A stretch of 64,000 bases of DNA from an uncultured Bacilli bacterium (lineage in GTDB: Bacteria; Bacillota_I; Bacilli_A; RF39; UBA660), in contig CALVYD010000005.1 in the NCBI GenBank assembly GCA_944371995.1, positions 4,844 to 68,843 of the forward strand. Direction: 5' to 3'. The notes under the pieces are model-generated. The model had not been told where the DNA came from and did no database searches. It saw only the letters and a program-made list of their open reading frames with translations. A program made the position numbers and the translations under genes. This document shows positions 200 through 51,759 of the stretch, one piece after another; position 1 is the first letter of the stretch; every line of letters starts with the position of its first letter.

Positions 200-213
200 A
201 AGGGAGAATGGAT

Positions 214-2310: not shown

Positions 2311-2311
2311 T

Positions 2312-5383: not shown

Positions 5384-7576
5384 ATGGATATCTATATCAA
5401 AGGAAATTATCAAAGAAGTATTTATCAAAATAGTAATGGTTACCATATAGGTCTTTTTAAGATAAAGGAGACAAATAGTGAAGACTTAACAAAATATATA
5501 GATAAAACCATTACTTTTACAGGTTATTTCCATGAATTAAATGATGTAGATACCTATCTTTTTTTTGGCCAAATGGTAGAACATCCAAAGTATGGAACAC
5601 AGTTTTCAGTAACCAATTATGAACGTTGTAAACCAGAAGAAAAAGATGCTATTGTTGATTTTTTAACAAGTGGTTTATTTAAAGGAATAGGAGAGAAAAA
5701 AGCCAAAACAATTGTAGATGTATTAGGAAAAGATACTCTACAAGTTATTTTAGAAAATCCAGATAATCTAATATTAATTCCAGGAATTACAAGAAATAAT
5801 ATTGATACATTACATACGAAATTAAAGGAATATGAAGCAAGTTATGAAACGGTTTTATATTTAGGAGAATTAGGTTTTTCAACAAAAGATGCTATGCTTG
5901 TCTATAATTTTTATAAAGAGAGAGTAAAAGCTATTATAGAAGAGGATATTTATCAGTTAATCTATAGTATTCCAGAAATAAACTTTAAAAAAATAGATCG
6001 AATTGCTCTAAAAAATGGAGTAGAAAAAAATGCTTTAATTCGTATCAAAGCTAGTATTTTATATATTATGGAAGAACTTAGTAATGCTTATGGACACAGT
6101 TATTTTTTCTATGATGAAATCTTTTCTTATTTACCTAGAGTATTATTAATAACCATATCGGACAACGAATATCAAGAAGCATTATCTTCTTTATTAAAAG
6201 ATATGAAAGTAATTCAAAAAGAAGAAAAATATTATTTAGAAGAAATGTATCAAGCAGAATGCTTTATTGTAAAAAGATTTCGTTTGCTTGCCCGAAAAGA
6301 AGAGGAAGTATTTAAAAACATAGATGATAAGTTTAAAGAAATGGAAAGTGTGTTTGGAATTTCTTACAATGAAGAGCAAAAGCAAGCTATTCTAGATAGT
6401 TGTAGAAAGAATTTTTTAATTATTACTGGTGGACCAGGAACTGGTAAAACTACAATTATGAAAGGCATTGTAGAGTTATATAAAGAACTTCATAAGTTAA
6501 CATATGAAAAGCTAGTAGATCGTCTTGCTTTATTAGCTCCAACAGGTAGAGCTGCTAAAAGAATGAGTGAGGCAACACTTCTACCAGCATCTACCATTCA
6601 TCGTTTCTTAAAATGGAATAAAGATACTAATAAATTTCAAGTAAATGAGTATCATAAGAGTAAAGTAGAACTTGTAATTATTGATGAAGCGAGTATGATT
6701 GATACCGAACTTCTAGCAAGTCTTCTAAAAGGAATTTCTGCAAACTGTAAAATAATTATGGTAGGAGATTCTTATCAACTACCATCTGTTGGACCAGGAC
6801 AAGTATTGCATGACTTAATTGAAAGTAAAAAATTGCCAGTCGTTGAACTAAAAGAATTATACCGACAAGGAAAAGATTCAAATATCTTATCTCTAGCTTA
6901 TGGTGTAAGAGAAGGAGAAGTAAGGGATGAGGTATTTAATCAAGAGGAAGATTTAACATTTATAGAATGTAATGATCAAGATGTCCTATCCAACTTAATG
7001 GATGTATCTCAAACATTTAAAGACTTATCATACAAAAAATTTCAAATACTTGCACCAATGTACAAAACAATGTATGGAATTGATACAATTAATCAAAAGC
7101 TACAAACGATTTTTAATCCAAAAGATAGTAGTAAAAAAGAATTAGTAGTAGGTGAAGTAGTATTTCGTGAAGGAGATAAAGTAATTGAACTTACAAATAT
7201 GCCAGAAGAAAATATCTATAATGGAGACATTGGTATTATTAGTACTATTATAACGCAACCAGTAAAAAAGATTATTATTGATTTTGATGGAAATGAAGTA
7301 ACTTTTACAAGTGCTAATTTTAATAAATTTAGACTTGCGTATGCAATTTCGATTCATAAGGCACAAGGAAGTGAATTTGATGTTGTTATTATGCCAATTG
7401 TACAAGGATATAAAAAAATGCTTTATCGTAAACTCGTCTATACAGGAATTACTAGAAGTAAAAAAATGTTATATCTAATTGGTGACAAAATTGCACTTCG
7501 TCAAGCAGTTGCTAATACTTCATCAGATATTAGAAGAACAACCATCAAAGATTTTTTAGAAAATGGTATAAAATAA
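5384..7576 (+). CDS. recD2: ATP-dependent RecD-like DNA helicase (RecD2/YrrC family)
   Basis: Walker A GGPGTGKTT, Walker B VIIDEASM, C-terminal AISIHKAQGSEF..YTGITR helicase motifs and a RecD2-type N-terminal OB/HhH region. Confidence 0.9.
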   Translation: MDIYIKGNYQRSIYQNSNGYHIGLFKIKETNSEDLTKYIDKTITFTGYFHELNDVDTYLFFGQMVEHPKYGTQFSVTNYERCKPEEKDAIVDFLTSGLFKGIGEKKAKTIVDVLGKDTLQVILENPDNLILIPGITRNNIDTLHTKLKEYEASYETVLYLGELGFSTKDAMLVYNFYKERVKAIIEEDIYQLIYSIPEINFKKIDRIALKNGVEKNALIRIKASILYIMEELSNAYGHSYFFYDEIFSYLPRVLLITISDNEYQEALSSLLKDMKVIQKEEKYYLEEMYQAECFIVKRFRLLARKEEEVFKNIDDKFKEMESVFGISYNEEQKQAILDSCRKNFLIITGGPGTGKTTIMKGIVELYKELHKLTYEKLVDRLALLAPTGRAAKRMSEATLLPASTIHRFLKWNKDTNKFQVNEYHKSKVELVIIDEASMIDTELLASLLKGISANCKIIMVGDSYQLPSVGPGQVLHDLIESKKLPVVELKELYRQGKDSNILSLAYGVREGEVRDEVFNQEEDLTFIECNDQDVLSNLMDVSQTFKDLSYKKFQILAPMYKTMYGIDTINQKLQTIFNPKDSSKKELVVGEVVFREGDKVIELTNMPEENIYNGDIGIISTIITQPVKKIIIDFDGNEVTFTSANFNKFRLAYAISIHKAQGSEFDVVIMPIVQGYKKMLYRKLVYTGITRSKKMLYLIGDKIALRQAVANTSSDIRRTTIKDFLENGIK

Positions 7577-7613
7577 AATGTTTTTACTCATAATAAAAAT
7601 GAGGTGATAAAAC

Positions 7614-7781
7614 ATGTCCAAGAAAACAATGAATAAAATGGTCTGGGCTGCAGTATTAGGAGGAATGGGAGTAGCAGGATATATGTATTTTAAGAAAAAT
7701 CCTAATGCTATGACTAATATGAAAGAAATGGCAAAAAATGCTGCTAAGACTACATATGATAAGTTAGAAGATATTGACTAG
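7614..7781 (+). CDS. Small (55 aa) membrane protein
   Basis: RBS gaggtga. Translation is MSKKTMNKMVWAAVLGGMGVAGYMYFKKNP.., with one Gly-zipper-like TM. Immediately followed by a strong terminator. Confidence 0.5.
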   Translation: MSKKTMNKMVWAAVLGGMGVAGYMYFKKNPNAMTNMKEMAKNAAKTTYDKLEDID

Positions 7782-7801
7782 GAAACTAGTCAATTTTTTT
7801 C
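7773..7801 (+). terminator. Rho-independent terminator
   Basis: Stem attgactag / ctagtcaat, loop gaaa, then T7. Confidence 0.8.
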
Positions 7802-7851
7802 TATAAAAAACTACTATCAATTTATATTATAAAAATATTGTAACCATCCTG

Positions 7852-7884
7852 TTGACAAATGTAATCAGAAGGGAAGTGTACAAT
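7852..7884 (+). promoter_or_regulatory. Putative sigma-A promoter of megapilin A (TTGACA-N21-TACAAT, over-long spacer)
   Basis: ttgaca at 7852-7857 and tacaat at 7879-7884. Homologous to the promoter upstream of the paralog at 46363-46392, which has an 18-nt spacer. Confidence 0.4.
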
Positions 7885-7914
7885 CTTATTAGAATAAAAT
7901 AATGATGGTAAGAT

Positions 7915-16035: not shown

Positions 16036-17481
16036 ATGAAATATCAAAAGGGAGAGCTCGGAGAAATTGAAAATAGTAATAATGTAAAAGGTTATTTAAC
16101 ATTTTCAGCTTTTAGTAGTCTAAGAAAAGATACAGAAGGTATATGGATAAGACATAAAAGAGGAAATGGTTACAAGCCATTATGGGAGTTTTTAAACACT
16201 AAAAATACTGGCTGGGTAATACAATTAGATGTATATGGTTCACGACTTCCACACGGTCCGGTATATATATATTACACAAAAGATGACAAAGGAAAATATA
16301 CGGAACCTAGGATTTTAATTGTTGCAGATGCGAATTATCATATTCAATCGGTGTTAGGATTAGGATTACATCAAAGTATTGAAAGTAGTATGGCATTGAT
16401 TGCTTTAGAAAAGATAGAAAGTTTTCCAGGTAATAAAAAAAGAAAGAAGATAGCTCATGATATTGCTTTATTAGCAAGGCTAGGAGATAAGATAAATAAT
16501 GATATTGAATTAACGAAGAAAGAGCTTAGATTTTTGTATGAAATAGATTCGAAAATAGAAAGTTTTTATCATATCGCTGATCCTAAAAAAGAAGAACTTA
16601 AAGCAAAGAGAAACATAAAAAAAGATTTAGCTTATATATTCGGTTGTAAAGAAGAAAATATTGGTACTAACATAACAGATTTTGATACAAATAAAATTAT
16701 TTATTATTATGGAAGTTTAGAATGGGAAAAAGATTTTGTTCCTGATACTTTTAAGGATTTAAAAAGAATAATAGGAGGTGCTTCCTTTCCTAATTTAACA
16801 AGTGCTGCTGGCCTAAATAATCTGCAACAAGTAGATGGTGCTTATTTTTCTAGTTTAACGAATGCGGAAGGATTGAATAACTTGCGCAATATTAGAGGAG
16901 GAGCAATTTTCTCTAATTTGATTTATGCAAAAGGATTAAATAATTTACGTAATATCTCCGCACAGGCTTCCTTTCCTAAGTTAACAAATGCGGAGGGATT
17001 AAATAATTTGCAGTATATAGGTAATTATGCTATCTTTGCTAGTTTGAAGAGTGCGAAAGGATTAAATAGTTTAAAATATATAGGGGAAGATGCTAATTTT
17101 TCTAGTCTAATAAGTGCTCAGGGCTTAGACAGTCTACAAAATATAGTTGGAGAAGCAGACTTTAGTAGTTTGCCTGAAGCGACAGGTTTAAATAATTTAA
17201 AAAATATAGGTGAACATGCAGGATTTCCTAATTTAATTAATGCAAAAGGACTAGATAGTCTTCAAAACATAGGTGGAATTGCTTATTTTCCTAAATTAAT
17301 TACAGCTCAGGGCTTAGAAAATTTACAACATATAGGAGGTTATGCAGATTTTGGTAGCTTAATAAATGCGGAAAGCTTGCATAACTTGAAATATATAGGA
17401 AGAAGATTTAATTTTAGAAATTTAACTTCTATTAAAGGATTAGAAAATATAAATATAGATTATATGGATTCAAATAGATAG
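16036..17481 (+). CDS. Leaderless protein with an unknown ~240-aa N-domain and ~11 tandem 21-aa leucine-rich repeats
   Basis: RBS ggaggt. No signal peptide. The C-terminal half is GL-x-x-L-x-x-IGG-x-A-x-F-x-x-L-x-x-A-x repeated with strict 21-aa spacing. Confidence 0.8.
   Translation: MKYQKGELGEIENSNNVKGYLTFSAFSSLRKDTEGIWIRHKRGNGYKPLWEFLNTKNTGWVIQLDVYGSRLPHGPVYIYYTKDDKGKYTEPRILIVADANYHIQSVLGLGLHQSIESSMALIALEKIESFPGNKKRKKIAHDIALLARLGDKINNDIELTKKELRFLYEIDSKIESFYHIADPKKEELKAKRNIKKDLAYIFGCKEENIGTNITDFDTNKIIYYYGSLEWEKDFVPDTFKDLKRIIGGASFPNLTSAAGLNNLQQVDGAYFSSLTNAEGLNNLRNIRGGAIFSNLIYAKGLNNLRNISAQASFPKLTNAEGLNNLQYIGNYAIFASLKSAKGLNSLKYIGEDANFSSLISAQGLDSLQNIVGEADFSSLPEATGLNNLKNIGEHAGFPNLINAKGLDSLQNIGGIAYFPKLITAQGLENLQHIGGYADFGSLINAESLHNLKYIGRRFNFRNLTSIKGLENINIDYMDSNR
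16770..17455 (+). repeat. 63-nt periodic coding repeat (about 11 units) encoding the 21-aa LRR array
   Basis: Units include GLNNLRNIRGGAIFSNLIYAK, GLNNLRNISAQASFPKLTNAE, GLNSLKYIGEDANFSSLISAQ and GLDSLQNIGGIAYFPKLITAQ. Confidence 0.85.
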
Positions 17482-20159: not shown

Positions 20160-21857
20160 ATGCCAGTACCGATTGATATAATAAAGTATTATGTTGAAAT
20201 ATCTAGACTAAAAAAAGCATTTCCTAACTTAGATGGTATAACATATTTAAAATATTTAGTTCGTGGAGTAGATTGTTGTTCTCCTGAAAAGCCAATTGCT
20301 TATCAATATGATAATCACTGTAAAATAATTTTTGAGGAACACGATGTATCAGGAACAATTTCTACAGATATTATTCCTATTACTTATCACAGTTCTTATG
20401 CTAATGCGATTGCGTTACAATTAAAGGAGACAATGAAAAGCTATCCCGACTTTTTTAGAACATTTTTAGAAGATTATGATGAAATTATCATTGATAAAGA
20501 TCAAGAAAGTTGTGAAGGAGCTTTGGTATTTAAAAATTATCTTAGATGTTCACCAAGGTTTGGACTTACTTTAGAAGACACTATTAAAGGAATCTTATCT
20601 GATAAGTATACATTGGATGAGAGGAAATATTCTAGGTTAACTTCACATTTTTCTTTAAAAAAAGTTAAAAAAGATTTAAATTATTGGTATTTATTACAAA
20701 GTCCAGATTTTGATGATTTATTTTCTTCACTTTTAGATAGCAAGCAATACCAGGAATTAAAATTATTGTTAGATCAACAGGAGTCTATTGATACCTATTT
20801 GGAAGAATTTAAAAAGCGGCATGTTTTCGACATAATAAATCAGGAAGTAGATAATTTTTATAATCGTTTTGGCATTACTGATTTTAAACTTATTAATGAT
20901 GCTTTAGAATATGCTCGTAATAATTATAAGTTCTATGAGAGGGATTTATCGGGATTTCAACAAGTAAGTCGTGATTTGGTGATTGATTTAACGCTTAAAT
21001 TTCTTGATACTATCGATGATACTCATGCTCTTAGTAAAGAGTTTCAAGAGACACTAGATGAAAAGAAAACAGTGTTATGGTATCCCAGTGAGAAGGAACA
21101 GGTAGAGGAGTTTTATAAGCAACAAAATTATGATTATAATAATGATATTGATGAAGCATATTATTCTCCATATTATGATAGAATAAATATTCCACTTACT
21201 GGAACGATACATGACGTTATTTGTACTGTGCATGAATTTATGCATCACCATAGTTTACATAAATGTTCTACTTTGAATAACGGGCTTTTAAAAGAAGTTA
21301 TTTGTATTTATTTTGAGATGAAAGCAGCTCATTGGCTAGTAGAACAAGGCTTTAAGGAAGAAGAATGCTTTGAAGACTTGGTACATCGTCAGGCAGTTGA
21401 TTTTTGGAATAATGCTTTTAGTGGTACTGCGCTTGTTTTTGATTTAATCAAAAGAAAACAACAATATGGAACTCTTACAGTAGATAATTTCGCTGATGAA
21501 AAATCACTTGGAGTCCAATTACTTATGTATTTGGTGCTTAACCATCCTGAGAAAATAGGAAATATTGAACAGACGGGATGGCCACTTTCCAATGAAGAAC
21601 GTGAGGCTGCTATAAATGAACTGGCTATGAATAATGTTAATGGACTTTTAAATACTAATCCAGTGAAAGTTACTAATTATTTATCTTACGCTTTAGGAAC
21701 TTATCTTGCTGATAAGAGTATTTCTAGTGATATGGATGCTAGAATGATGTTTGTTGCAGATAACTTGAGTAATCCAGAATATAGTGATTTGGATTTATTT
21801 AAACATATTCAAGAAGGATATCGTTTAACTTCTATAGAAAAGTTAAAGAAGATGTAG
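20160..21857 (+). CDS. Hypothetical protein with a gluzincin-like HExxH..E motif (possible metallopeptidase)
   Basis: RBS aaggagg. TVHEFMHHHSL is followed ~25 aa later by EVICIYFEMKAAHW, an arrangement reminiscent of M3-type peptidases. Otherwise no recognisable domain. Confidence 0.55.
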   Translation: MPVPIDIIKYYVEISRLKKAFPNLDGITYLKYLVRGVDCCSPEKPIAYQYDNHCKIIFEEHDVSGTISTDIIPITYHSSYANAIALQLKETMKSYPDFFRTFLEDYDEIIIDKDQESCEGALVFKNYLRCSPRFGLTLEDTIKGILSDKYTLDERKYSRLTSHFSLKKVKKDLNYWYLLQSPDFDDLFSSLLDSKQYQELKLLLDQQESIDTYLEEFKKRHVFDIINQEVDNFYNRFGITDFKLINDALEYARNNYKFYERDLSGFQQVSRDLVIDLTLKFLDTIDDTHALSKEFQETLDEKKTVLWYPSEKEQVEEFYKQQNYDYNNDIDEAYYSPYYDRINIPLTGTIHDVICTVHEFMHHHSLHKCSTLNNGLLKEVICIYFEMKAAHWLVEQGFKEEECFEDLVHRQAVDFWNNAFSGTALVFDLIKRKQQYGTLTVDNFADEKSLGVQLLMYLVLNHPEKIGNIEQTGWPLSNEEREAAINELAMNNVNGLLNTNPVKVTNYLSYALGTYLADKSISSDMDARMMFVADNLSNPEYSDLDLFKHIQEGYRLTSIEKLKKM

Positions 21858-22797: not shown

Positions 22798-23343
22798 ATG
22801 AAGATTATTAGTGGTAAATATAAGGGTAGAGTATTAGAAGGATTCGATATTGCTGGAACAAGACCAACGATGGATAGAGTAAAAGAAAGTGTATTTGCGA
22901 TGATTCAAATATGGTTAGAAGATGCTATTGTCCTAGATTTATTTGCAGGAAGTGGAAATCTTGGAATAGAAGCACTAAGTGAGGGCGCTAAGGAGATTTA
23001 TTTGGTAGATAAAAATAAAAAAGCTTGCCAAGTAATGAAAAGAAACTTAGATAAAATTGGTGTAAGTGAAAATGTTATATTTTATGGAGATTATAAAAAA
23101 GCCTTAGATAATTATAAGAATCAATCAATGAAGTTTGATATTATTTTTCTAGATCCTCCCTATCAAACAGACTTAGTTGAAAAAAGTATCGAAATAATAG
23201 AAAAAGAGGAATTGCTTTCTAAAGATGGAATCATAGTAGCAGAAAGCAATAGTATAGATAAGATAATCTTTTCTAAAGGACTAAAGATGATAAAAAGTAA
23301 AAAATATGGTGATAAAGTGGTAGCTATCTTACAACAATTATGA
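22798..23343 (+). CDS. rsmD: 16S rRNA (guanine966-N2)-methyltransferase
   Basis: RPTMDRVKESVF, SAM-binding DLFAGSGNLGIEALS and the catalytic DPPY motif. Confidence 0.9.
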   Translation: MKIISGKYKGRVLEGFDIAGTRPTMDRVKESVFAMIQIWLEDAIVLDLFAGSGNLGIEALSEGAKEIYLVDKNKKACQVMKRNLDKIGVSENVIFYGDYKKALDNYKNQSMKFDIIFLDPPYQTDLVEKSIEIIEKEELLSKDGIIVAESNSIDKIIFSKGLKMIKSKKYGDKVVAILQQL

Positions 23344-23370
23344 TAAAATAATGGTAAGATAGGTGATAAT

Positions 23371-25263
23371 ATGAAAAGATTAAATAATAAGGGTTTTGCT
23401 ATTACGACATTATTGTATGGTCTTATGATAATGTCTTTATTAGTTGTGATTGCTTTAGTTACCAATCTTGGTACTAATCGTTCCAACACTTCTACGTTTG
23501 TAGAAAAAATTGAAGATGAATTAAATAGGTTAAGTATTACAAACACGGAAGGTGATTATATAGGTGGAGATGTAGACAGTCAAGGGCGTGAGTATATTGC
23601 TCCAACAGCTGGCTGGTATAAAATCGAGCTCTGGGGAGCTGCCGGTGGTGGAACAAATGGTGGACGAGGAGCCTATACTTCAGGAATCATGTATCTAGAA
23701 GCTAATGATCGTCTATATTTTTATGTTGGAGCGCAAGGTGGAACTTCAGCCAGTAGTTTTAATGGAGGCGGAGCAGGTGCATCAAGCAATTATTTTGCCG
23801 GCGGTGGAGCAACAGATGTTAGGTTAATTTCAAGTACTTGGAATGATGAAGAATCGTTAGATAGTCGTTTGATGGTAGCGGCTGGCGGTGCTGGTAATGG
23901 TAATGGTAACGAAGGCGGTGTCGGTGGATATTTAACTGGTGGTAATGGAAAAGGTACAGCTAGTGCCATTGGACAAGCTGGTACCCAGTCAGCTGGCGGT
24001 GCTGGTGCTGGTGCAGCCGGTAGCTTTGGTATTGCTGGAGATGGTGGAAGTAATTCCGCAGGTGGTGGCGGAGGCTATTTCGGTGGAGCTGCAAGTGGTG
24101 CTAATGCATCTGCCGGAGGAGGCTCATCCTTTATTATAGGGTATGCCGGAAGTAGAGCAGCAACAGATGGTACCGCAGGAGACCAACCTACAAAGACTTA
24201 TAATGTACATCGTGGTGATTATGATGATGAAGGAAATGAAATTATAGAATCATATACTCCTGTAATATATAACGGATTAATGATTGCCGGAGTAAATGAT
24301 GGAGCAGGTAAGTTCAGAGTCTCTAAAGTATCAGACAATGATAGTGCAAATCCACCAAAAAAAGGAAGCAACGCTAAATTAAATCAAGTAAGATACATTC
24401 GTGATTGTGTAGATGGTAATACGGTAGATAGCAATGGTTACTGGCTAGAAATTCAAGCGATTAGTAATGGAACAAATTTAGCATTAGGAAAAGCTCCAGC
24501 AGGAAGCGGAGGTACTGCATCAGATTTAAACTATATAACGGATGGCAGTGTTGATGATATGGCTTCCGTAGGGAAAATAACAGGATCTGGCAATAAATGT
24601 GTACAAATAGATTTAGGTGCTCCAGTAGATTTAGACGAAATTGCTGTCTGGCATCAATATCAATTAAACAATTCTGCAGTTAGTTTTAAAAATCATACAC
24701 TATCTGTTAGTACAAACGGAAGTAGCTGGCAAACAATCAGAGGAAATAGCTCAGATACAAGTGATACGGGTATAACAAATGAAGAAGAAACCTCAAATGG
24801 TATTCATTATAACACATTTCACGCAGACGCTTTAGGAGAAATTCCTGATGGAAATTATTATATCGTTTCAGCTAATAGTGACAAAATGGCCTTGACAGCC
24901 GCAGAAGAAGGATCTAACAATTTTGCCAAGATGGATTATTTTACAGGAGATGCAACTCAAGTATGGTATGTCTATAAACAGACATCAGCAAGTGGAGCAG
25001 TAAACTATCATATGGTAAGTACATCAAATCAACTAGCTTGCACTGTAACAGGAGCAGGAACTAGTTCTATAATAAGACTATCAGCAAACGGAAATGGTGA
25101 TGAACAAGGATTCAATATTACACCTTTAGGAAATGGTTATTATACGATTACTAGTAACACAGGTAATCGACTAGGATACAGTACTAGTAACATTTCATTA
25201 GAAACCCAATCAGTAACTCAAGAGAAAACACAACGTTGGAAATTTGTATTAGCTGAGTATTAA
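23371..25263 (+). CDS. Pilin-like-anchored surface protein: Glu5-less GF leader, glycine-rich (ALK/LTK GlyR-like) domain, discoidin-like module and ricin-B-like lectin
   Basis: Leader MKRLNNKG/FAITTLLYGLMIMSLLVVIALV. Glycine-rich stretch WGAAGGGTNGGRGAY..VGAQGG..FNGGGAG..GGGATDVR..VAAGGAGNGNG. Discoidin-like stretch YIRDCVDGNTVDSNGYWLEIQ..CVQIDLG..IAVWH. C-terminal QVWYV and QRWKF Q-x-W motifs. Confidence 0.8.
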   Translation: MKRLNNKGFAITTLLYGLMIMSLLVVIALVTNLGTNRSNTSTFVEKIEDELNRLSITNTEGDYIGGDVDSQGREYIAPTAGWYKIELWGAAGGGTNGGRGAYTSGIMYLEANDRLYFYVGAQGGTSASSFNGGGAGASSNYFAGGGATDVRLISSTWNDEESLDSRLMVAAGGAGNGNGNEGGVGGYLTGGNGKGTASAIGQAGTQSAGGAGAGAAGSFGIAGDGGSNSAGGGGGYFGGAASGANASAGGGSSFIIGYAGSRAATDGTAGDQPTKTYNVHRGDYDDEGNEIIESYTPVIYNGLMIAGVNDGAGKFRVSKVSDNDSANPPKKGSNAKLNQVRYIRDCVDGNTVDSNGYWLEIQAISNGTNLALGKAPAGSGGTASDLNYITDGSVDDMASVGKITGSGNKCVQIDLGAPVDLDEIAVWHQYQLNNSAVSFKNHTLSVSTNGSSWQTIRGNSSDTSDTGITNEEETSNGIHYNTFHADALGEIPDGNYYIVSANSDKMALTAAEEGSNNFAKMDYFTGDATQVWYVYKQTSASGAVNYHMVSTSNQLACTVTGAGTSSIIRLSANGNGDEQGFNITPLGNGYYTITSNTGNRLGYSTSNISLETQSVTQEKTQRWKFVLAEY

Positions 25264-25288
25264 AAGCAGGAAACTGCTTTTATTTTTG
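25262..25288 (+). terminator. Rho-independent terminator
   Basis: Stem aaagcag / ctgcttt, loop gaaa, T-rich tail. Confidence 0.75.
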
Positions 25289-25295
25289 AAAAAAA

Positions 25296-25322
25296 TTAGC
25301 ACATTCTATTGACAAGTGCTAA
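25296..25322 (+). promoter_or_regulatory. CIRCE operator 1 (degenerate inner arms), overlapping the -35 box
   Basis: TTAGCACAT-N9-AAGTGCTAA compared with consensus TTAGCACTC-N9-GAGTGCTAA. Confidence 0.8.
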
Positions 25323-25338
25323 CATATTGTCATATAAT
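25309..25338 (+). promoter_or_regulatory. Sigma-A promoter of the hrcA operon
   Basis: TTGACA at 25309-25314, 18-nt spacer, TATAAT at 25333-25338. Confidence 0.75.
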
Positions 25339-25342
25339 ACAA

Positions 25343-25369
25343 TTAGCACTCGTATAATAGTAGTGCTAG
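25343..25369 (+). promoter_or_regulatory. CIRCE operator 2
   Basis: TTAGCACTC-N9-TAGTGCTAG, located just downstream of the -10 box. Confidence 0.85.
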
Positions 25370-31902: not shown

Positions 31903-31934
31903 AAACTGTGAACCAGATTCACAGTTTTTCTTTG
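31903..31934 (+). terminator. Rho-independent terminator after dnaJ
   Basis: Stem aaactgtgaa / ttcacagttt with a 5-nt loop, then a T-run. Confidence 0.8.
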
Positions 31935-31994
31935 CTAACGAAGTATGGTATAATGATATTACAAAATGTTCTTACATATATTAGGAGGAAGTCT

Positions 31995-34547
31995 ATGAAT
32001 GACCAAAACACGATTATTGAACTTTCAAAAATGTCTTTAGGAGAATTTATAAAAAAGTTAAATTCTATGACGTCAGAAGAACAGAAAGAATTATTAAACA
32101 ATCCATATTTAGATGAACTAAATCCAGTAATATTTTCTTCTTTCTTTTTACAACTACCGCCAGAGGAAGCTAAACAAATACTTAATAATCCCAAAATTTA
32201 TCATAAAGTATTAACATCTCCAAAAAACAAAAAGAAAAGAAATATTCTAAATATTGTAGGAGAGAATAACTTTGACTTATTAAAACACATTTTTGAAAGT
32301 GACTATTTTTCATCATATAAAGAACAATTCTATGATTATATAGATTCTATTTCTTATGAGAGTTTCCAAAAAATATTAGAAAGTGTGAATCTTACCAAAA
32401 TAACTGACGCCATATTTAAAGAAAAAAGTGTTGAAGAATTAGAAAATTTAACTGGTATAGGTAATTTAAACCCTGAAATCACAACTTCATTTCTTCAAAA
32501 AGTAAAGATGCATCAATTAAATCCCTTAGGTATCCTAAAGATAAAAAATGAAAAAGAATTATTGATTTATACAAAATTTTCTCAATTAGTTCCAGTAGCA
32601 AGTGATTTAGAAGAAATCACGCTAAAAAATGGTACTGTCTTACCATATCAAAATATTTTAGAATTAAAAGAAGGTAAAGTAAACAAATTAATTCAATTAT
32701 TAAAAGCAAAAGGAAATTCTACACCTGAAGAATTATTAGAAGTAGGATTAAAACTATATTATATTTTTGGTTATGATGATGCTAGAAAAATTATTATGGA
32801 TAAATTTACGAATATGACTCCTAGCGCCATAATAAGAATTACAGATTTTAATTTTAAAGATCATCGAAGAGAATATCGTACTAAGCACCAAGAACGATTT
32901 TATCATCATGGAATAGAAGAAGAGCTTCTACTAGCCCTAGAAAGAGAAAATCATCAATTCTTTTCTAATCTTTTGTATGAAGCAAATGCATTAGAGATTG
33001 ATGAGTTAGAAAAATATTTTTTAAATATTGTTTCGACATATAAAAACTCTCCTGAATTAAAAGAGGTAATACAAGGAAAAATATTAGAGTTAATTAATCA
33101 AAGAGAAGCTAAAGCAAAAGAGAACTATACGAAAGACAAAGCAGAAAAGCTATCAACTCGTATACCTCATGAGTTATCGGTAAAAGAGTTAAAAGAACTA
33201 TTCCATGACGTATCTTTAGTATATTTATTAAAAAATTATGACCAGAAAACAATTTCTAACTTACAACAATTTTTATTAGGTAATAGAAAAGAAAATAATG
33301 ATTGTATCCTACGTTTAATTATTAATCAGGAAGCACTAGGACTAAATCAAATGTTAGGAACATTAATAAACAAATATGACGTAATAGAATCTGTTGCTAG
33401 AAAAAATAAATTATCTTTAAACTCAATATTAGATGTAATAGATATAGTAAAAACTAGTTTCTTTTCATTAAAGCCAAATGAGCAAGATATATTTTTATCA
33501 ACGATTGCTAAAATAATATCATCAAAAGAGTATTGTAATGGCAAAAGTGAAGAAGAAATTCTAAAAGAAACATTAAAATTACATGTAGAGAGAAAAAATA
33601 AAGTTTATGCATCAATTCCCATGGTTACTGGAGAAGATAGTGGTTTTTCCTATCAAGTTGCACCTTTTGATGCAGAATATTTATTAGCAGCAGGAGTAGA
33701 CTCTAAAAACTGTTTTCGTATATCTGGTAAAGGAGAAGATTTTTTTAGGTATTGCCTAACTAGTAATCAAGCAGTGATTATGTATTTTAACAATACCAAG
33801 ACTGAACATACTTATGTTTGCCCTATAGTAAGAAGTGGAAATGGAATTCATTGTAATGGAATAGATCCTGAACTTCCTAAAGAAGAGCAAGATGACTTTT
33901 TCAAAGCTTTTTCTAAGGCAATGGAACAAATAATTAATATAAGTAGTGAAAATAGTATTCCAGGCCAACAAATAGAAGTAGCGACAACAACAGATTTACA
34001 TCTAACAGAATATTTTGCAAATGGACCATACACAAAATATGAACTAGGAACCTATATACCAATTGATAAATATTGCTATACAGACTATAATAAAAAAGAA
34101 AAAACACATTATATTATATCTAAAAGTAGTACTTATCAAGAAAATAAATATTATTTGTCAGATGACAAATTTTATCAGGCAAGAAGAGCAGATTATGAAT
34201 TTAATATTGATAAAGAATATGATAAGGAGCGCCTATCATTAATAGTAAATTCTATTGCATATTCTGCAATTGATTATAAAAATATATCTACTACCAAGAA
34301 AAATAAAGAAAAACGAAATTTTAAACCAATCGATGTTAATACGTTTCAATATATTGTTGGAAATAAAGATTGGTATGTTGCAATTGATAATCAGTTTAAT
34401 ATTTTAGCAAATCTACTACCTTATGATGAGAGAGCAAAAAAAGATTATATTAGGCATTTAGCACAAGCACCATTATTAATTGAAAATATGGAAAAAGAGG
34501 AGAAAAGTAATGGAATTAATCGGGAAAATTTATCAAAAAATAAATAA
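31995..34547 (+). CDS. Large (850 aa) cytoplasmic orphan protein
   Basis: The track ORF starts at 31908 inside the dnaJ terminator. ATG 31995, preceded by RBS aggagga, is preferred. No signal peptide, TM or known motif recognised. Confidence 0.7.
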   Translation: MNDQNTIIELSKMSLGEFIKKLNSMTSEEQKELLNNPYLDELNPVIFSSFFLQLPPEEAKQILNNPKIYHKVLTSPKNKKKRNILNIVGENNFDLLKHIFESDYFSSYKEQFYDYIDSISYESFQKILESVNLTKITDAIFKEKSVEELENLTGIGNLNPEITTSFLQKVKMHQLNPLGILKIKNEKELLIYTKFSQLVPVASDLEEITLKNGTVLPYQNILELKEGKVNKLIQLLKAKGNSTPEELLEVGLKLYYIFGYDDARKIIMDKFTNMTPSAIIRITDFNFKDHRREYRTKHQERFYHHGIEEELLLALERENHQFFSNLLYEANALEIDELEKYFLNIVSTYKNSPELKEVIQGKILELINQREAKAKENYTKDKAEKLSTRIPHELSVKELKELFHDVSLVYLLKNYDQKTISNLQQFLLGNRKENNDCILRLIINQEALGLNQMLGTLINKYDVIESVARKNKLSLNSILDVIDIVKTSFFSLKPNEQDIFLSTIAKIISSKEYCNGKSEEEILKETLKLHVERKNKVYASIPMVTGEDSGFSYQVAPFDAEYLLAAGVDSKNCFRISGKGEDFFRYCLTSNQAVIMYFNNTKTEHTYVCPIVRSGNGIHCNGIDPELPKEEQDDFFKAFSKAMEQIINISSENSIPGQQIEVATTTDLHLTEYFANGPYTKYELGTYIPIDKYCYTDYNKKEKTHYIISKSSTYQENKYYLSDDKFYQARRADYEFNIDKEYDKERLSLIVNSIAYSAIDYKNISTTKKNKEKRNFKPIDVNTFQYIVGNKDWYVAIDNQFNILANLLPYDERAKKDYIRHLAQAPLLIENMEKEEKSNGINRENLSKNK

Positions 34548-41027: not shown

Positions 41028-42368
41028 TTAGGAAAGTCTATTTTTATTAGGGTAAGAAATTATTAAAAAAGTTTTTTTCTTTTGTAAGACATCATCACTT
41101 GTTTTAATAATTTCTTCTTGATATTCGTGCTCGACATATCTTTTCTTTTGAAAATGTTCCTCATCTTTATAAATAGTACCTGTTTTAGTTAAAGAAAAAG
41201 AATGTATCTTTTCTTCCTGCTTTAAAAATCTGGTTAATGCGATAAAACTTTCTACATAAAACTCTTTTATCTCTTCTTTAGTTTTTCCATCTTTAATATA
41301 AATAGGCCAGCTATAATAATCATAATAATAAGGCTGATATCTACCACGAAGCTTATCTTCATCTATAATATCACTTAATAGTTCTCTTTGTTCTACTTCT
41401 TCTAATTCATATAGCTTTTTCGTATCAATAGCAACAACATCATCTTTTACATGCTCTATCATCATAAATATACTAACAAAGTATGACTGATTTAATATTT
41501 CATCATAAGTACGTTCATAATATCCTCTTTGCTTTTTAGGAATGTCTTTATAACGATTAAGCTTATGGATGACAGATAGTTTTTCTTCTTCTGTAAATTT
41601 ATCACTAGAAAGTATTGCAAGAGTAAAATTATGATAGGGATTTTTTTCTAAGAAGTATTCTTTTGCTTTTGGATGAAATTTTTCTTTAGGTGTTTTCATA
41701 ATATAATCGGCTAAAAAATCTTTTCTTCCAAATTTGATATCCAAAGGATAAGGAAGATAATGCCCGTAACTACTTTCTTCTGAATAGGTAAAAATTTGAT
41801 CCATAATTTGCTCATAAACTGGTACTAATTCTGCTATTTTCTCTTTTGCTAAAGAAAGCGACTCTAAATAATTGAAACGATGATAGGAACAAATATAAAA
41901 GGGTAGTTGTTCATTATCAAAATATAAGACAGAAAGATATTCCAAGAAATTTTTATTTTTTGCTTGTTTTTGCCAAAAATTTAAAGAAAAAACAGCTTCT
42001 TGATCTAAAATTTGACTCGTATATGAATTATGTAATGGTTTGATAATTTTATCCATGACTGACTTTATAAATATCTCTTGTTCTTCTTCATCTAAATCAA
42101 TATTAACTTCTTCTATAATATAGTGAAGAAATTTTTCTTCCAGTGGAGTAACCATGACCTCTTGTTCTTCATAATCTTTTAATATTTTTTCAATAAATTC
42201 TTTTTTCTCTATCTCAATAAGACTCATTTTATTAAAAATAGAAGCTTCACCATACATATCTAGATATTTTGAAATACGACGAACAATTCCTAAAGCAATC
42301 ACTTCATTATTATTAAGATGTTCTTGAAAATTATTTAATTTCTGCATAATACTCGTTTTCATATTCAT
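41028..42368 (-). CDS. Cytoplasmic orphan protein (about 446 aa)
   Basis: An AAGGAG RBS inside the track ORF favours the Met at 42368 (MNMKTSIMQ..). No recognisable domain. Confidence 0.65.
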   Translation of the reverse strand: MNMKTSIMQKLNNFQEHLNNNEVIALGIVRRISKYLDMYGEASIFNKMSLIEIEKKEFIEKILKDYEEQEVMVTPLEEKFLHYIIEEVNIDLDEEEQEIFIKSVMDKIIKPLHNSYTSQILDQEAVFSLNFWQKQAKNKNFLEYLSVLYFDNEQLPFYICSYHRFNYLESLSLAKEKIAELVPVYEQIMDQIFTYSEESSYGHYLPYPLDIKFGRKDFLADYIMKTPKEKFHPKAKEYFLEKNPYHNFTLAILSSDKFTEEEKLSVIHKLNRYKDIPKKQRGYYERTYDEILNQSYFVSIFMMIEHVKDDVVAIDTKKLYELEEVEQRELLSDIIDEDKLRGRYQPYYYDYYSWPIYIKDGKTKEEIKEFYVESFIALTRFLKQEEKIHSFSLTKTGTIYKDEEHFQKKRYVEHEYQEEIIKTSDDVLQKKKTFLIISYPNKNRLS

Positions 42369-42471
42369 TTGACGCTCCTTAGACATTTTTATCTATCTTA
42401 TCATTTTTTTAAACAATTTTATAGAAATTTTTAGTCTTTTTTTCTATAATATATTATAAGGAGTTGAAGTT

Positions 42472-46423: not shown

Positions 46424-49400
46424 ATGAGAATAGGAAAAAAGTTAAAGAATAGAAATGGTTTTACGCTAATTGAATTGATTGCGGTAATCGCTATTCTGGG
46501 AATTATTTTGCTACTAGCATTGCCACAAGTTTCTAAGATTCAACAGGCCAACAAAAATAGAAAGTATGAAGCTTATGAACTGTCTATAGAACGTGGTGCT
46601 AAACTATATACAGATTCGAATGCCAGAGATATGTTTGGTAATAATAATTCTGGTTGTGTAACGATTCCATATTCTGTTTTGAAATCAAGTAATGTTATCA
46701 AAGATTTTAGTGATCCTGATATTACTTGTTCTAACGATTCTGAAACTTATGTTAGAATTAGAAAGATTAACGATGATTATCGCTATGATGTCGCCCTAAC
46801 TTGTAGACAAGAGGGAGATGTTGTCTACCAAAAAGAAATAGATACAACCTTTACTTGTACGAATTCTCCAGATACGGAAGTACCAATAATTGAAGCTAGT
46901 CCGTCATCAAAATCTAACTGGGTAAAATCAGAAGATTTAGAAATAACGATTAAAATATCAGATGCAAGTGGACTAAATAAAAATACAAGTATTAAATATT
47001 ACTGGGTAAAGACTTCTGGAGAAAAAGTAGGAAAAGAATATACTCATAACTATAATAATAAAAAAGGTGTAACAAAAGTAAGCTATAAAATCCCTAAAAA
47101 GAATATGATAGATACTACTGGACAATATTATTTAGTAGTAGAACCTTATCGAACAACAACGGCAAATGGAGTACAAGATGTATTAGGAAATGACAGAATA
47201 ACAGAAGAGCGATTTGGAATATATAAAATTGATAATACGAAACCAAGTTGCGGTGTAGCCGATGGAGAAAAAACAAAATGGACAAATACAGATTTTACCA
47301 TTACGCAACATTGTGGTGATGGAGAAAGTGGCTGTGTAAAAGAAAGTTATAGTAAGAAGTTCACGGAATCGACTACTACCCATACTTTTACTATAAAAGA
47401 TAAAGCAGGAAATACCAATAAATGTAAAGTAAATGTATATTTGGATAAAGATAAACCAACATGTGGAAAAACAAAAGGAGAAAGTACAGAGTGGACTAAC
47501 AAAGATAGAACCATCAGTGTGGAATGTGAAGAAAAAGAGTTTAGTAAATGTAAGAAAGATGTATTTGAAGTGACATTCTCAACAGAGGGAAAGAAAGATA
47601 ATATAGAAATACAAGATAATGCAGGAAACAAAACACAATGTTCTGTAAACAAATATATTGATAAGACACCACCAAAATGTCCAACCATTAGTTCAACAAC
47701 ACCAGCTGGAAAATGGACTAATAAAGATATTACTTATACGTTTAAATTTACAGATGATACAGCTAAATATATATGGTATACCAAAGTAGGAGATAATGAC
47801 TGGAAAGAATGGAGTACCAATAAACCGAGTGTTACTCAAAAATCTATCACAGCAGAAGGATACCGAAAAGTAGGAGTACGAGTATATGACATTGCAGGAA
47901 ATCACCAATTATGTGGAACAGATGCGACATATAATATAGATAAATCAAAACCAACATGTGGAACAGCATCAGGATCAAGTACAACATGGATAAATAAAGA
48001 TAGATATATTAGTCAAGGATGTAACGATAGTTTGAGTGGATGTAGCGCACCAACATTTAATAAGACATTCACAACAGAAGGAACAACTGACAAAATATCA
48101 ATAGCAGATAAAGCAGGAAATTCCAATACCTGTACAGTAAATAAATATATAGATAAAACTAGGCCGACATTAGGGTATAAATTGACACAAGATACAACGG
48201 GTCAACCTTATAAACCAGGAACATGGACTAGAAATGGAGTGTTCCGTGATTTGTATCCAGCAGATAAAGGTGGAAGCGGAGTGCTAGAAACCCAATATAA
48301 TCTTGGAGGTGGATGGGATCACGAACCAAATTTAAGCAATTTTTATATAGGTGAAGGTAATCAAACGGGAAGGTATCGAGTAAAAGATAATGCCGGAAAT
48401 TACAGTGATGAAGTAGTTTTACATTTTATGATTGACTGGACCGCTCCGAACTGTGTAAGTAGTGGAGGAAGTAGTAACGCAACAATAGGACCAGTAACAA
48501 TCACAGGAATATGTAGCGATGGCATTAGTGGATGTACAGGAAATGTATCAAGAACATTCACTAACGATATGAATGAATGGGTATCACCAGGAACTGTTAG
48601 AGACAATGCTGGAAATACGAGAGAATGTCCAACACAACAAGTAAATATAAATACAAGACCAAATAAACCAACCATACAAAATCCAACAAATGAAAAATGG
48701 GTAAACTATAACTTTGCTTTAACGGTAAAGACCACATCACCAAGTAATATCATAGGATATTGGCAATATAGTTATGACAATAGTAACTGGGTAACCTATT
48801 CTAATTCCGCAACAAATAACTTTGTAACTACAAACTTTGAAAGAGAAAGAAACCAATTAGCATATATTAGAGTATGTAGTAAATCGGGTTTATGTTCAGA
48901 ATCCGCATCAACTTATATTAGAATAGATAAAACGAAACCAACGTTAGGATATAAATTGACTGATGATACTACAGGAGCAAATTATATTTCAGGGACATGG
49001 TCAAGACACGGATTGTATCGTGATTTATATCCAAAGGATAATGCCAGCGGAGTAAAAGAAGTGCAGTATAATGATAGTAATAGTGGATGGTATAATGAAC
49101 CAAATTGGAATCATTTCTGGATACGCACTGAGAGAATTAGAACAAGTAAATATCGAGTATATGATTATGCAGGAAATGTTAGTGATGAAGTAACAATAGA
49201 GTATAAGATTGATTGGACTCCACCGGTTGTAGAAAGTTTTGATTATGAATATACCGCTCCTGATCCGATCTGTAATACGAATCCATTAAAATACGCTGAT
49301 CCTACTGTTTTGATTTTTAGAGTAGATGTATTTAATGTTAGAGCGTATGATCCGCAGGTTAATAGTTCTCATAGTGGTATCGATCATTTTCAAATTGTTA

Positions 49401-49729
49401 TTGCACCTACATACTGGATTTATAAAAATGATGATACAACAGCAAAGGCACAGTGTACAGAGGATAGTTGCTATGATAACGCTTACCGTTACAAATATGT
49501 AAATGTTAATAATGTGCAAAGTATAGGAAATGGATATTATACCTTTCCTAGAACCAATGCTACAGCACAAATGAACAATCTTAATTACGGAAATACGAAA
49601 GCATTTTGTGCTGATTGGTGTATTAATGTTATTGCTGTAGATAAAGCTGGTAATGGTCAACAATCACCTACTTCCTGGGGAACAGGGACTGAATGTCCTC
49701 AAAAATATAAAGATGGTCGAGGATATTAA
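46424..49729 (+). CDS. Giant prepilin-type N-terminal domain protein (megapilin B), paralog of 7915-11643
   Basis: Leader MRIGKKLKNRNG/FTLIELIAVIAILGIILLLALPQ. The first ~560 nt are nearly identical to copy A. Module order is X 47939-48151, Z 48152-48433, Y 48434-48925, Z 48926-49210, then the C-terminal domain. Confidence 0.85.
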   Translation: MRIGKKLKNRNGFTLIELIAVIAILGIILLLALPQVSKIQQANKNRKYEAYELSIERGAKLYTDSNARDMFGNNNSGCVTIPYSVLKSSNVIKDFSDPDITCSNDSETYVRIRKINDDYRYDVALTCRQEGDVVYQKEIDTTFTCTNSPDTEVPIIEASPSSKSNWVKSEDLEITIKISDASGLNKNTSIKYYWVKTSGEKVGKEYTHNYNNKKGVTKVSYKIPKKNMIDTTGQYYLVVEPYRTTTANGVQDVLGNDRITEERFGIYKIDNTKPSCGVADGEKTKWTNTDFTITQHCGDGESGCVKESYSKKFTESTTTHTFTIKDKAGNTNKCKVNVYLDKDKPTCGKTKGESTEWTNKDRTISVECEEKEFSKCKKDVFEVTFSTEGKKDNIEIQDNAGNKTQCSVNKYIDKTPPKCPTISSTTPAGKWTNKDITYTFKFTDDTAKYIWYTKVGDNDWKEWSTNKPSVTQKSITAEGYRKVGVRVYDIAGNHQLCGTDATYNIDKSKPTCGTASGSSTTWINKDRYISQGCNDSLSGCSAPTFNKTFTTEGTTDKISIADKAGNSNTCTVNKYIDKTRPTLGYKLTQDTTGQPYKPGTWTRNGVFRDLYPADKGGSGVLETQYNLGGGWDHEPNLSNFYIGEGNQTGRYRVKDNAGNYSDEVVLHFMIDWTAPNCVSSGGSSNATIGPVTITGICSDGISGCTGNVSRTFTNDMNEWVSPGTVRDNAGNTRECPTQQVNINTRPNKPTIQNPTNEKWVNYNFALTVKTTSPSNIIGYWQYSYDNSNWVTYSNSATNNFVTTNFERERNQLAYIRVCSKSGLCSESASTYIRIDKTKPTLGYKLTDDTTGANYISGTWSRHGLYRDLYPKDNASGVKEVQYNDSNSGWYNEPNWNHFWIRTERIRTSKYRVYDYAGNVSDEVTIEYKIDWTPPVVESFDYEYTAPDPICNTNPLKYADPTVLIFRVDVFNVRAYDPQVNSSHSGIDHFQIVIAPTYWIYKNDDTTAKAQCTEDSCYDNAYRYKYVNVNNVQSIGNGYYTFPRTNATAQMNNLNYGNTKAFCADWCINVIAVDKAGNGQQSPTSWGTGTECPQKYKDGRGY

Positions 49730-51118: not shown

Positions 51119-51197
51119 TCTTGACTTTTTTTGTCTTTAGTGGTAGTATAATAGCGATAAAAAAGAGGTGAGTGAAAAAGGAAAAGAGGGAGGCTAT

Positions 51198-51716
51198 ATG
51201 TATAGTGAAAAATATGAACAACGTGGTTTTTCATGTAAACCTTTTTTATTAAGAATAATATTATTAATAGTACTTGTTTTTTTCATCATAGATATATTAC
51301 CAAACTTAGTAAAACCTACTATAATCACAAATAGTAAAAATAAGGATGTCTATCTTTCACCATTAACTTCAAAAGTATATGCTAACAATACAGAAAAAAT
51401 GAAGAAAGCAGCCCTTACTTATTATACAGAAGAAAAACTTCCTACTAATATTGGAGATTCAAGCACATTAACATTACAAGATATGAAAAAGCAAAACTTA
51501 ATCACTTCTTTAACGGTTGAAAACAACAATACTTATGATGAAACCGAAAGTTATATAAAACTAACAAAAATAGGACAAGATTATCTATTAAAAATAAATT
51601 TAAAAGATAATAAGCAAGAAAATTATCTTTTAGTACACCTAGGATTTTATACACATTGTGATAATAATATATGTGAGAATAAGATAAGTAAAACAAAAAA
51701 AACAGTAAAATTATGA
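51198..51716 (+). CDS. Single-pass membrane protein of unknown function
   Basis: RBS agagggagg, then ATG 51198. One TM (FLLRIILLIVLVFFIIDILP) and an extracytoplasmic ~120-aa domain with a C-terminal Cys pair. Confidence 0.6.
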   Translation: MYSEKYEQRGFSCKPFLLRIILLIVLVFFIIDILPNLVKPTIITNSKNKDVYLSPLTSKVYANNTEKMKKAALTYYTEEKLPTNIGDSSTLTLQDMKKQNLITSLTVENNNTYDETESYIKLTKIGQDYLLKINLKDNKQENYLLVHLGFYTHCDNNICENKISKTKKTVKL

Positions 51717-51759
51717 TATATAAAAATATATGATATATTGTAATACAAGGGGGATAATT

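Follow-up and report, generated by a model that had tools for sequence, protein, structure and literature searches.

A 64,000-nucleotide stretch of DNA from an uncultured Bacilli bacterium of the RF39 lineage (contig CALVYD010000005.1, positions 4,844 to 68,843 of the forward strand; hereafter the window) contains an open reading frame (ORF) at 23371..25263 (+) that encodes a 630-residue protein, the target of this study, which we infer to be a glycan-binding surface lectin. Its ectodomain is composed of three modules, all of receptor-binding or carbohydrate-binding kinds, and is preceded by an N-terminal module that is shared with proteins bearing quite different passengers. We give an even chance to the proposal that the lectin is displayed on a degenerate class III-type (prepilin-like) carrier that lacks the glutamate at position +5 (Glu5). 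The original prediction, which had described a lectin-type adhesin with a pilin-like anchor, is confirmed as an observation and partly supported as an interpretation: the domains and co-transcription with a housekeeping gene hold, and the pilin-like reading is plausible, specifically supported and unproven. It had missed the strict synteny of the gene, the finding that the N-terminal module is the best-conserved part of the protein, and the wholesale replacement of the ectodomain at one locus. What is new is the combination of a lectin with a class III-like carrier that has neither Glu5 nor a head, and the swapping of ectodomains at a fixed housekeeping locus.

Domains and fold of the ectodomain

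Domains were assigned using the Pfam cut-offs for PF12810 (24.5 bits), PF14200 (25.6 bits), F5_F8_type_C (28.2 bits) and PF22633 (27.8 bits) and were counted in a set of 63 homologs, which also served for conservation, column entropy and the alignment from which an AlphaFold2 model was built (mean pLDDT 90.7, pTM 0.86). In this model the ectodomain consists of an all-β region at residues 59-321, a β-sandwich at 340-481 and a twelve-stranded region at 494-627. The first region (23545..24333, +) is a TNF-like plus glycine-rich ("TG") supradomain, identified by PF12810, Foldseek, profile and PHROG matches. The bacterial ALK/LTK-like glycine-rich domain (GRD) that the original prediction had proposed from glycine spacing is borne out by the HMM search, in which ALK_LTK_GRD (PF12810) matched residues 79-318 with E=2.2e-32 and 113.4 bits, covered profile positions 6-241 of 243, and was found in 63/63 homologs. 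Its polyglycine-rich insert occupies residues ~119-276 and is 31% Gly. The best Foldseek match in the PDB was the TG region of LTK (7nx1, E=4e-8), followed by 9g5i, the ALK GRD structures 7ls0/7n00, and 7nx4, with E values up to 2e-7; TM-scores to the LTK/ALK TG structures were low (0.35-0.45, target-normalised) because the query has several domains. A PDB search with the single target sequence gave no match and the family profile was required, which recovered Caenorhabditis elegans ALK (7lir, 1.3e-5) and LTK (1.5e-3). In the homologs P0045, P0092, P0095 and P0101 the polyglycine lattice has been deleted (100-130 residues, corresponding to residues ~125-255 of the target), and these proteins retain the TNF-like core GWYKIELWG, the β-sandwich and the trefoil. 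The loss of the whole lattice implies that it is dispensable in some species.

The C-terminal region, residues ~494-627 (24850..25251, +), is a ricin-type β-trefoil lectin domain according to Pfam, profile and Foldseek comparisons. RicinB_lectin_2 (PF14200) scored 29.6 bits in the target, above the cut-off, and was present in 55 of the 63 homologs. Two of the three QxW motifs are kept, QVW 530-532 in the first lobe and QRW 620-622 in the third, in agreement with the QVWYV and QRWKF motifs on which a ricin-B-like C-terminus had been predicted; Q530 is invariant and W532 nearly invariant in the homologs. Foldseek aligned this region with the β-trefoil lectins SSA (2x2s), ThreeFoil (3pg0) and an Entamoeba lectin (6ifa) at target-normalised TM-scores of 0.78-0.84, and the family profile matched ThreeFoil (1.4e-15), the mosquitocidal toxin MTX (5.8e-14) and a CBM13-bearing galactanase. 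Between the supradomain and the trefoil, residues ~340-484 (24388..24822, +) form a galactose-binding-like or discoidin-like β-sandwich, an assignment made from sub-cut-off Pfam scores, homologs and the model. The F5/8-type-C module of the original prediction stands at the level of the family and falls short in the target itself, which scored 25.2 bits for F5_F8_type_C and 24.6 bits for PF22633, both below cut-off; PF22633 was detected in 32/63 homologs at E<=1e-3 (best E=5e-9), including P0045 (35.0 bits) and P0100 (54.3 bits).

Modules of the same kinds are found in phage proteins. Three PHROG families of unknown function matched the GRD region (2.6e-27, 1.4e-26 and 2.9e-22), a structure search of BFVD matched it to many phage GRD and tail-fibre-type proteins, and the middle β-sandwich resembles tail-fibre modules of Bacillus phages JL and CP-51 (30-31% identity, rmsd 2.3-2.6 Å). 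Many of the phage GRD proteins among the BFVD matches carry the UniProt name "receptor protein-tyrosine kinase", which is likely a systematic misannotation caused by annotation transfer from the ALK/LTK domain.

A candidate carrier module with exchangeable passengers

The target begins with MKRLNNKGFAITTLLYGLMIMSLLVVIALV. Its N-terminal module consists of a leader, a transmembrane helix and a juxtamembrane amphipathic helix, which together occupy residues 1-62 (23371..23556, +). The basic leader MKRLNNKG (23371..23394, +) ends in Gly8, after which lies a putative prepilin peptidase site (G/F), and the hydrophobic segment FAITTLLYGLMIMSLLVVIALVTNL (23395..23469, +), which has Thr at +5, would form an alpha1-N-like or transmembrane helix. 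The Gly-Phe leader without Glu5 and with Thr at +5 is thus as originally read. The consensus over the first ~55 residues is LNN[KR]G/FA[IV]ST.LY…NR…E[DE]ELNR, with the juxtamembrane helix following the pattern …NR.N…F/L-V..IE[DE]ELNR[YLF]S. In the 63 sequences, G8, F9, A10, Y16, R37, E48, L51 and R53 are invariant and N5, N6 and K/R7 nearly invariant, the leader always ending in N-N-[KR]-G. From F9 to ~L33 the residues are hydrophobic save for S/T at +4 and +5, and this part is helical in the model. The mean column entropy is 1.15 in the N-terminal module, 1.74 in the GRD, 2.22 in the β-sandwich and 2.34 in the trefoil.

The first ~55 residues appear to be an autonomous carrier module. When residues 1-62 were searched exhaustively by phmmer against 1.84 billion cluster representatives (E<=1e-3), 389 representatives proved to carry the module, all of them at the extreme N-terminus. 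Typical orthologs have 500-720 residues; in other complete proteins the match to the target ends after the first ~55 residues. The module is followed by a lone β-trefoil in P0217 (228 residues, PF14200 1e-15), P0247 and P0255, by an unrelated domain of ~250 residues ending in G[VI]RPV in P0213, P0219, P0222 and others, and by a β-rich domain of unknown kind in P0177, with P0151 and P0163 representing reduced forms that have a TNF-like stub and a trefoil. Several of the proteins with the G[VI]RPV tail are Cys-rich, and this domain has either no Pfam match or a weak match to DUF6273 only. Three of these proteins, P0217, P0219 and P0222, are encoded at ylbD-ylbE-ylbF-rsmD-X-hrcA-grpE, i.e. they are positional orthologs of the target in which the ectodomain has been replaced; in P0219 (L064 4820-5767) and P0222 (L063 1713-2624) the lectin modules have given way completely to the G[VI]RPV-tail domain. 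In one genome, two further tandem paralogs (L062 1283-2590 and 2577-3944), which lie where the locus varies, from parC to ylbD, combine the same Glu5-less module with a novel β-rich passenger that has no Pfam match. The parC-ylbD region of the window contains an unrelated 565-residue ORF (20160-21857), also with no Pfam match. Because the juxtamembrane helix is conserved whatever passenger follows, its contacts must be with a partner different from the passenger: with an assembly machine, with further helices of this kind or with itself.

Synteny and transcription of the locus

More than 1,000 proteins resemble the target. A survey of its locus, for which one genome per species was scanned, yielded 57 loci, all from uncultured gut metagenome-assembled genomes labelled Bacilli, Mycoplasmatota or Tenericutes. 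Among them are Mycoplasma sp. CAG:877 and Candidatus Faecimonas, which is the GTDB genus CAG-877 of family CAG-611 and order RF39 and has a 1.4 Mbp genome of 28% GC (PMC8035907). The gene order parC…ylbD-ylbE-ylbF-rsmD-target-hrcA-grpE-dnaK was observed in 55/57 loci. Across the loci, identity to the target ranges from 29 to 88%, versus 83-99% for dnaK and 73-98% for parC, and the leader has 5-14 residues, depending on the choice of start codon. The target belongs to the core genes of RF39-type gut Bacilli; it is inherited vertically, present as a single copy and evolving fast.

This synteny bears directly on the phage-like matches of the ectodomain, which might suggest that the target is a phage-derived receptor-binding protein, encoded by the tail-fibre gene of a (possibly defective) prophage in the chromosome. 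The PHROG and BFVD matches to the GRD speak for such an origin. The occurrence of the gene at the same position between rsmD and hrcA in 55/57 species-level genomes effectively refutes it, and the adjacent genes (ylbD/E/F, rsmD, hrcA, grpE, dnaK) are housekeeping genes, although several ORFs farther away in the window have no Pfam match. The protein has, moreover, an N-terminal membrane helix in place of a baseplate-docking domain, and the modules that it shares with phages reflect common domain ancestry. We consider a prophage origin highly improbable.

The gene immediately upstream, rsmD (22798..23343, +), encodes a protein of the 16S rRNA m2G966 methyltransferase family (PF03602, E=2e-53) and precedes the target in 55 of 57 loci. 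Its stop codon at 23343 and the target ATG at 23371 are separated by a 27-nt spacer that includes a Shine-Dalgarno sequence, AGGTGA (23361..23366, +), 4 nt before the ATG; a consensus scan found no terminator between the two genes, so that coordinates and scan both agree with the terminator-less 27-nt junction described originally. The rsmD-target gap is 24-46 nt (mode 27) in 53/53 measurable loci, 40 of which have an AGGTG/GGTGA-type ribosome binding site ahead of the start. Because this terminator-less adjacency is kept in every measurable locus, co-transcription of the target with rsmD, as had been predicted, is likely. An intrinsic-terminator-like element (25261..25292, +), with its hairpin and T-run located at 25261-25282, overlaps the target stop codon, a similar element follows the stop in 45/49 loci, and it probably marks the end of the ylbD-rsmD-target transcription unit. 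The target is most likely the last cistron of the ylbD-ylbE-ylbF-rsmD housekeeping operon and is therefore probably made constitutively.

A perfect TTGACA-18-TATAAT promoter lies after the target terminator, at 25309-25338, ahead of hrcA. Its −35 hexamer is contained in a CIRCE-like inverted repeat at 25296-25322 (TTAGCACAT-N9-AAGTGCTAA), and a second such repeat, TTAGCACTC-N9-TAGTGCTAG, is found at 25343-25369, just downstream of the −10 element of this sigma-70 promoter. The two repeats are presumably HrcA operators.

Similarity of the N-terminal module to class III signals

In class III signals, a hydrophilic leader of 6-26 residues has Gly as its last residue and precedes a stretch of ~21 hydrophobic residues; processing depends critically on this Gly at −1, and cleavage can do without Glu5, which is required for homopolymerisation (PMC4471445). 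The target leader, with 8 residues and a basic character before Gly8, fits this description, and the protein departs from the definition of a class III signal only in lacking Glu5. When the module was aligned by hhalign with seven canonical leaders of the lineage, a score of 34.5 was obtained (P=1.3e-6, probability 90.7%), in a register that placed …NKGF… of the module over …KKGF… of the canonical leaders. Eight other transmembrane N-termini or signal-anchors of the window scored 9.5-19.2, column-shuffled canonical leaders scored <=15.7, and the mean after shuffling the transmembrane part only was 22.4. A systematic control consisted of 47 non-redundant N-terminal transmembrane sequences, one of which proved to be a missed family member, leaving 46; among these, canonical prepilin leaders ranked 1, 2, 4 and 5, with scores of 21-27 versus a median of 12.3. 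Judged by these controls, the resemblance of the module to canonical prepilin leaders is specific rather than a by-product of hydrophobicity, and the leader-like N-terminus of the original prediction is upheld to that extent, with Gly-Phe in register.

Canonical class III proteins are present in the same DNA. Two megapilins, of 1242 residues (7915..11643) and 1101 residues (46424..49729), score above the PF07963 cut-off, share the leader KKGFTLIELIAVIA and nearly identical first ~70 residues, and contain Ig-like domains. Each stands alone among housekeeping genes (recD2-like; ppdK/pfkB), with no pilus operon. A related locus, L037, encodes three further proteins with canonical leaders: one with GYTLIEVL and a Gly-rich C-terminal domain (6630-8834), the PF07963-positive P0100 (8858-12109; 1083 residues) with GFTLIELL followed by Ig-like, GRD and three discoidin domains, and one with GFTLTELL and LRR-like repeats (15839-16858). 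These too are scattered among housekeeping genes (topA, miaB, trmD, obg), with no pilus operon. The GRD-discoidin cassette of P0100 is homologous to that of the target, so that the same cassette occurs on both canonical and Glu5-less carriers. Attaching large binding modules to class III leaders, at housekeeping loci that are scattered, seems to be routine in this lineage. The N-terminus of ORF 51168..51716 ("RGF") was considered as a further pilin-like leader and was rejected, since its motif is followed by Lys and Pro and hhalign gave it a control-level score.

Other surface and uncharacterized proteins are also encoded in the window. The region 208-3043 encodes a protein of the cell surface that contains SpaA-type, InlB B-repeat and SHIRT domains and is followed by a sortase, which indicates that the organism is walled and also uses covalent surface anchoring. 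This agrees with the prediction that most RF39 bacteria retain a peptidoglycan wall and sortases (PMC10868615). The ORFs at 16036-17481, 31908-34547, 41028-42386 (−) and 51730-54144 (451-879 residues) have no Pfam match at E<=1e-3.

A number of observations weigh against a class III assignment. Position +5 is T in 59/63 homologs and S in 4/63, and is never Glu (Thr13 in the target). Neither PF07963 nor TIGR02532 matched the target at E<=1 in Pfam/NCBIfam searches. A local HMM of the module, run by hmmsearch against all ORFs of the window and the loci, found exactly one copy per locus and retrieved no canonical leaders; the two leader types are thus not linked by a plain HMM search, and only the profile-profile comparison connects them. 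Regular-expression searches of the window and the 57 loci revealed no prepilin peptidase (GxGDxK) or PilB/ComGA Walker signatures, and pilus genes never lie beside the target. Neither a four-stranded pilin head nor room for one is seen in the model where the helix gives way to the TG domain, and its confidence is low where the helix joins the ectodomain (pLDDT 54-62 over residues 31-60, <50 at 51-55). Finally, the juxtamembrane helix has an invariant polar face (R37, E48, E50, N52, R53) that would suit an oligomerisation stalk equally well. The RF39 literature yielded nothing on pili or competence, and nothing relevant was found on PF12810. The module is best regarded, on its sequence, as a distinct family of its own and not as a canonical leader. 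The earlier proposal that the target uses the same anchoring logic as the megapilins consequently fails in the strict sense, given the missing Glu5, the missing PF07963/TIGR02532 match, the missing pilin head and the separate family.

The alternative that must be taken most seriously is that the N-terminus is an uncleaved type II signal-anchor, whose juxtamembrane helix acts as an oligomerisation stalk, e.g. a trimeric one, and whose likeness to prepilins is convergent or vestigial. We regard this as possible and would place it somewhat below an even chance. In the model, residues 7-55 form a single uninterrupted helix of 49 residues (pLDDT 73-79 in the membrane part) that is unpacked on the ectodomain; given the low confidence of its junction and the lack of a head, no alpha1-C is modelled as packed on a globular head as in pilins. 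Such a helix, conserved whatever its passenger and so contacting something else, might well be a stalk, and the conserved hydrophobic residues V44, I47, L51 and Y/L54 have the a-d spacing of a heptad repeat, with invariant charges nearby. A precedent exists in the cyanophage Pam3 protein gp24, which functions in receptor recognition and has the same order of long helix, TNF-like domain and ALK-resembling GRD, its helices forming a trimer (PMC9608196). Phage S16 gp38, at the tip of a tail fibre, has a polyglycine lattice and is grouped with it. Pam3 gp24 differs from the target in being a virion protein with a baseplate-docking helix; the target has a membrane helix instead and, further on, two lectin modules. 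The absence of an N_methyl match, of Glu5 and of nearby pilus genes also speaks for a signal-anchor. However, such an anchor leaves the invariant Gly-Phe-Ala at the cytoplasmic edge of the helix and the basic NN[KR] leader unexplained, canonical class III leaders come significantly closer to the module than do any of the other transmembrane N-termini in the tests, and further large surface proteins of the same genome have class III signals.

A Sec signal peptide, too, would provide a basic N-region and then a hydrophobic stretch, and the target has no LPXTG or other C-terminal anchor, as would befit a soluble lectin secreted after cleavage by signal peptidase I. This is improbable because the hydrophobic stretch, at ~22-25 residues, is long for a class I signal, and because the next ~25 residues are highly conserved and helical, which would be unexpected at or just past a cleavage site. 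Furthermore, no conserved small-x-small motif follows the hydrophobic region.

Discussion

Modular type IV pilins occur widely, with over 1,200 proteins and 264 architectures known; in Streptococcus sanguinis, PilB carries a vWA domain, and PilC is a lectin-bearing (concanavalin-A-like) modular pilin at the tip of the pilus (PMC8179133, PMC9934059). Like these proteins, the target would have an N-terminal class III-type helix bearing bulky C-terminal ligand-binding modules, including lectins, and its same-lineage relative P0100, with the homologous GRD-discoidin cassette, is a PF07963-positive modular pilin. PilB and PilC differ in that their signal is canonical and includes Glu5, that they possess a small pilin head and that their genes lie in a pilus operon; Glu5, an IPR012902/PF07963 match and a head are all missing from the target, the gene for which is part of a housekeeping operon. 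When compared with the published definition of a modular pilin (PMC8179133), the target has the extra domains; the IPR012902 motif is undetected and no pilin module is evident. At best, it works like a modular pilin, and it cannot be classed as one.

Pilin-like proteins without Glu5 are known, as the original prediction had stated and the literature bears out. ComGG and GspK lack this residue, and GspK caps the pseudopilus (PMC8727766) and carries an extra domain (PMC8179133). Likewise, the Glu5-less signal of S. sanguinis PilA was missed by all available bioinformatic tools (PMC9934059). The target resembles these proteins in lacking Glu5 and in having Gly at −1 and a hydrophobic residue at +1. 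It differs from them in that they have a pilin fold and are encoded with partner minor pilins, and no sequence similarity was found between the target and the globular parts of GspK, ComGG or PilA. The sequence G-F-A-I of the target presumably resembles a GspK-type G-V-A-L.

A different use of class III signals is seen in the bindosome of Sulfolobus solfataricus, which contains sugar-binding proteins with such signals (PMC4471445). Here, the signal places sugar-binding proteins on the cell surface without an obvious long filament, and archaeal class III signals often lack Glu5, both of which recall the target. The bindosome is nevertheless archaeal, its passengers are solute-binding proteins of the ABC type, it depends on the dedicated Bas assembly system, and it has no homology to the target. 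With respect to the ectodomain, the PF12810 match (E=2e-32) and the fold similarity relate the target to the ligand-binding region of ALK and LTK, which differ in being metazoan receptor kinases that bind protein cytokines. The trefoil and discoidin/CBM modules, two QxW motifs included, are related by HMM and fold matches to those of botulinum HA33, MTX and the CBM13 of 1,3Gal43A; in contrast to these known modules, which usually reside on toxins or glycoside hydrolases, those of the target are accompanied by no catalytic or toxic domain.

If the target is indeed a lectin on a degenerate class III-type carrier, the short basic leader ending in Gly8 and the following Phe-Ala and ~22 hydrophobic residues would constitute a degenerate class III signal, and the prepilin peptidase of the lineage, whose existence may be supposed because two canonical prepilin-type proteins lie in the window, would cut the leader off after Gly8. 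The mature protein would then begin with one ~47-residue alpha1-like helix that lacks a head and, without Glu5, would probably be unable to homopolymerise. It could serve either as a stalked anchor held in the membrane, like the archaeal bindosome proteins, or as the first (tip) subunit of a type IV filament, and in either case the module would display the ectodomain beyond the wall. There, the TG domain, the galactose-binding-like β-sandwich and the β-trefoil may act together in binding glycans, whether on other microbes, on particles of food or on the mucus of the host; the suggested role as an adhesin follows from the lectin-type domains. The ectodomain evolves rapidly and is exchanged between species, with retention of the carrier module.

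A bolder proposal, which we put forward as tentative and rather doubtful, is that the module is an unrecognised headless, Glu5-less pilin-like carrier that is processed by the peptidase and caps an RF39 type IV filament, thereby providing a fixed "adhesin slot" for interchangeable tip adhesins. If so, a single housekeeping-linked locus would give each species its own tip adhesin (TG-discoidin-trefoil, lone trefoil or DUF6273-like), and this slot would be invisible to current pilin-detection tools. More generally, should the N-terminus be a Glu5-less class III signal that is processed, surveys that count type IV pilin-like proteins by motif would overlook a whole family of at least 389 sequence clusters, and this family would illustrate how a headless pilin helix can serve in nature as a generic carrier. 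The target also provides, in combination with lectin modules, a bacterial relative of the ALK/LTK ligand-binding domain that is tractable.

Abundant in the gut and uncultured, RF39 bacteria have reduced genomes and many auxotrophies. The target is among the few lineage-specific surface proteins that are encoded at a fixed locus across this group. Its lectin modules diverge or are swapped between species and its expression is probably constitutive, which is the pattern expected of a factor for the recognition of a host or a partner.

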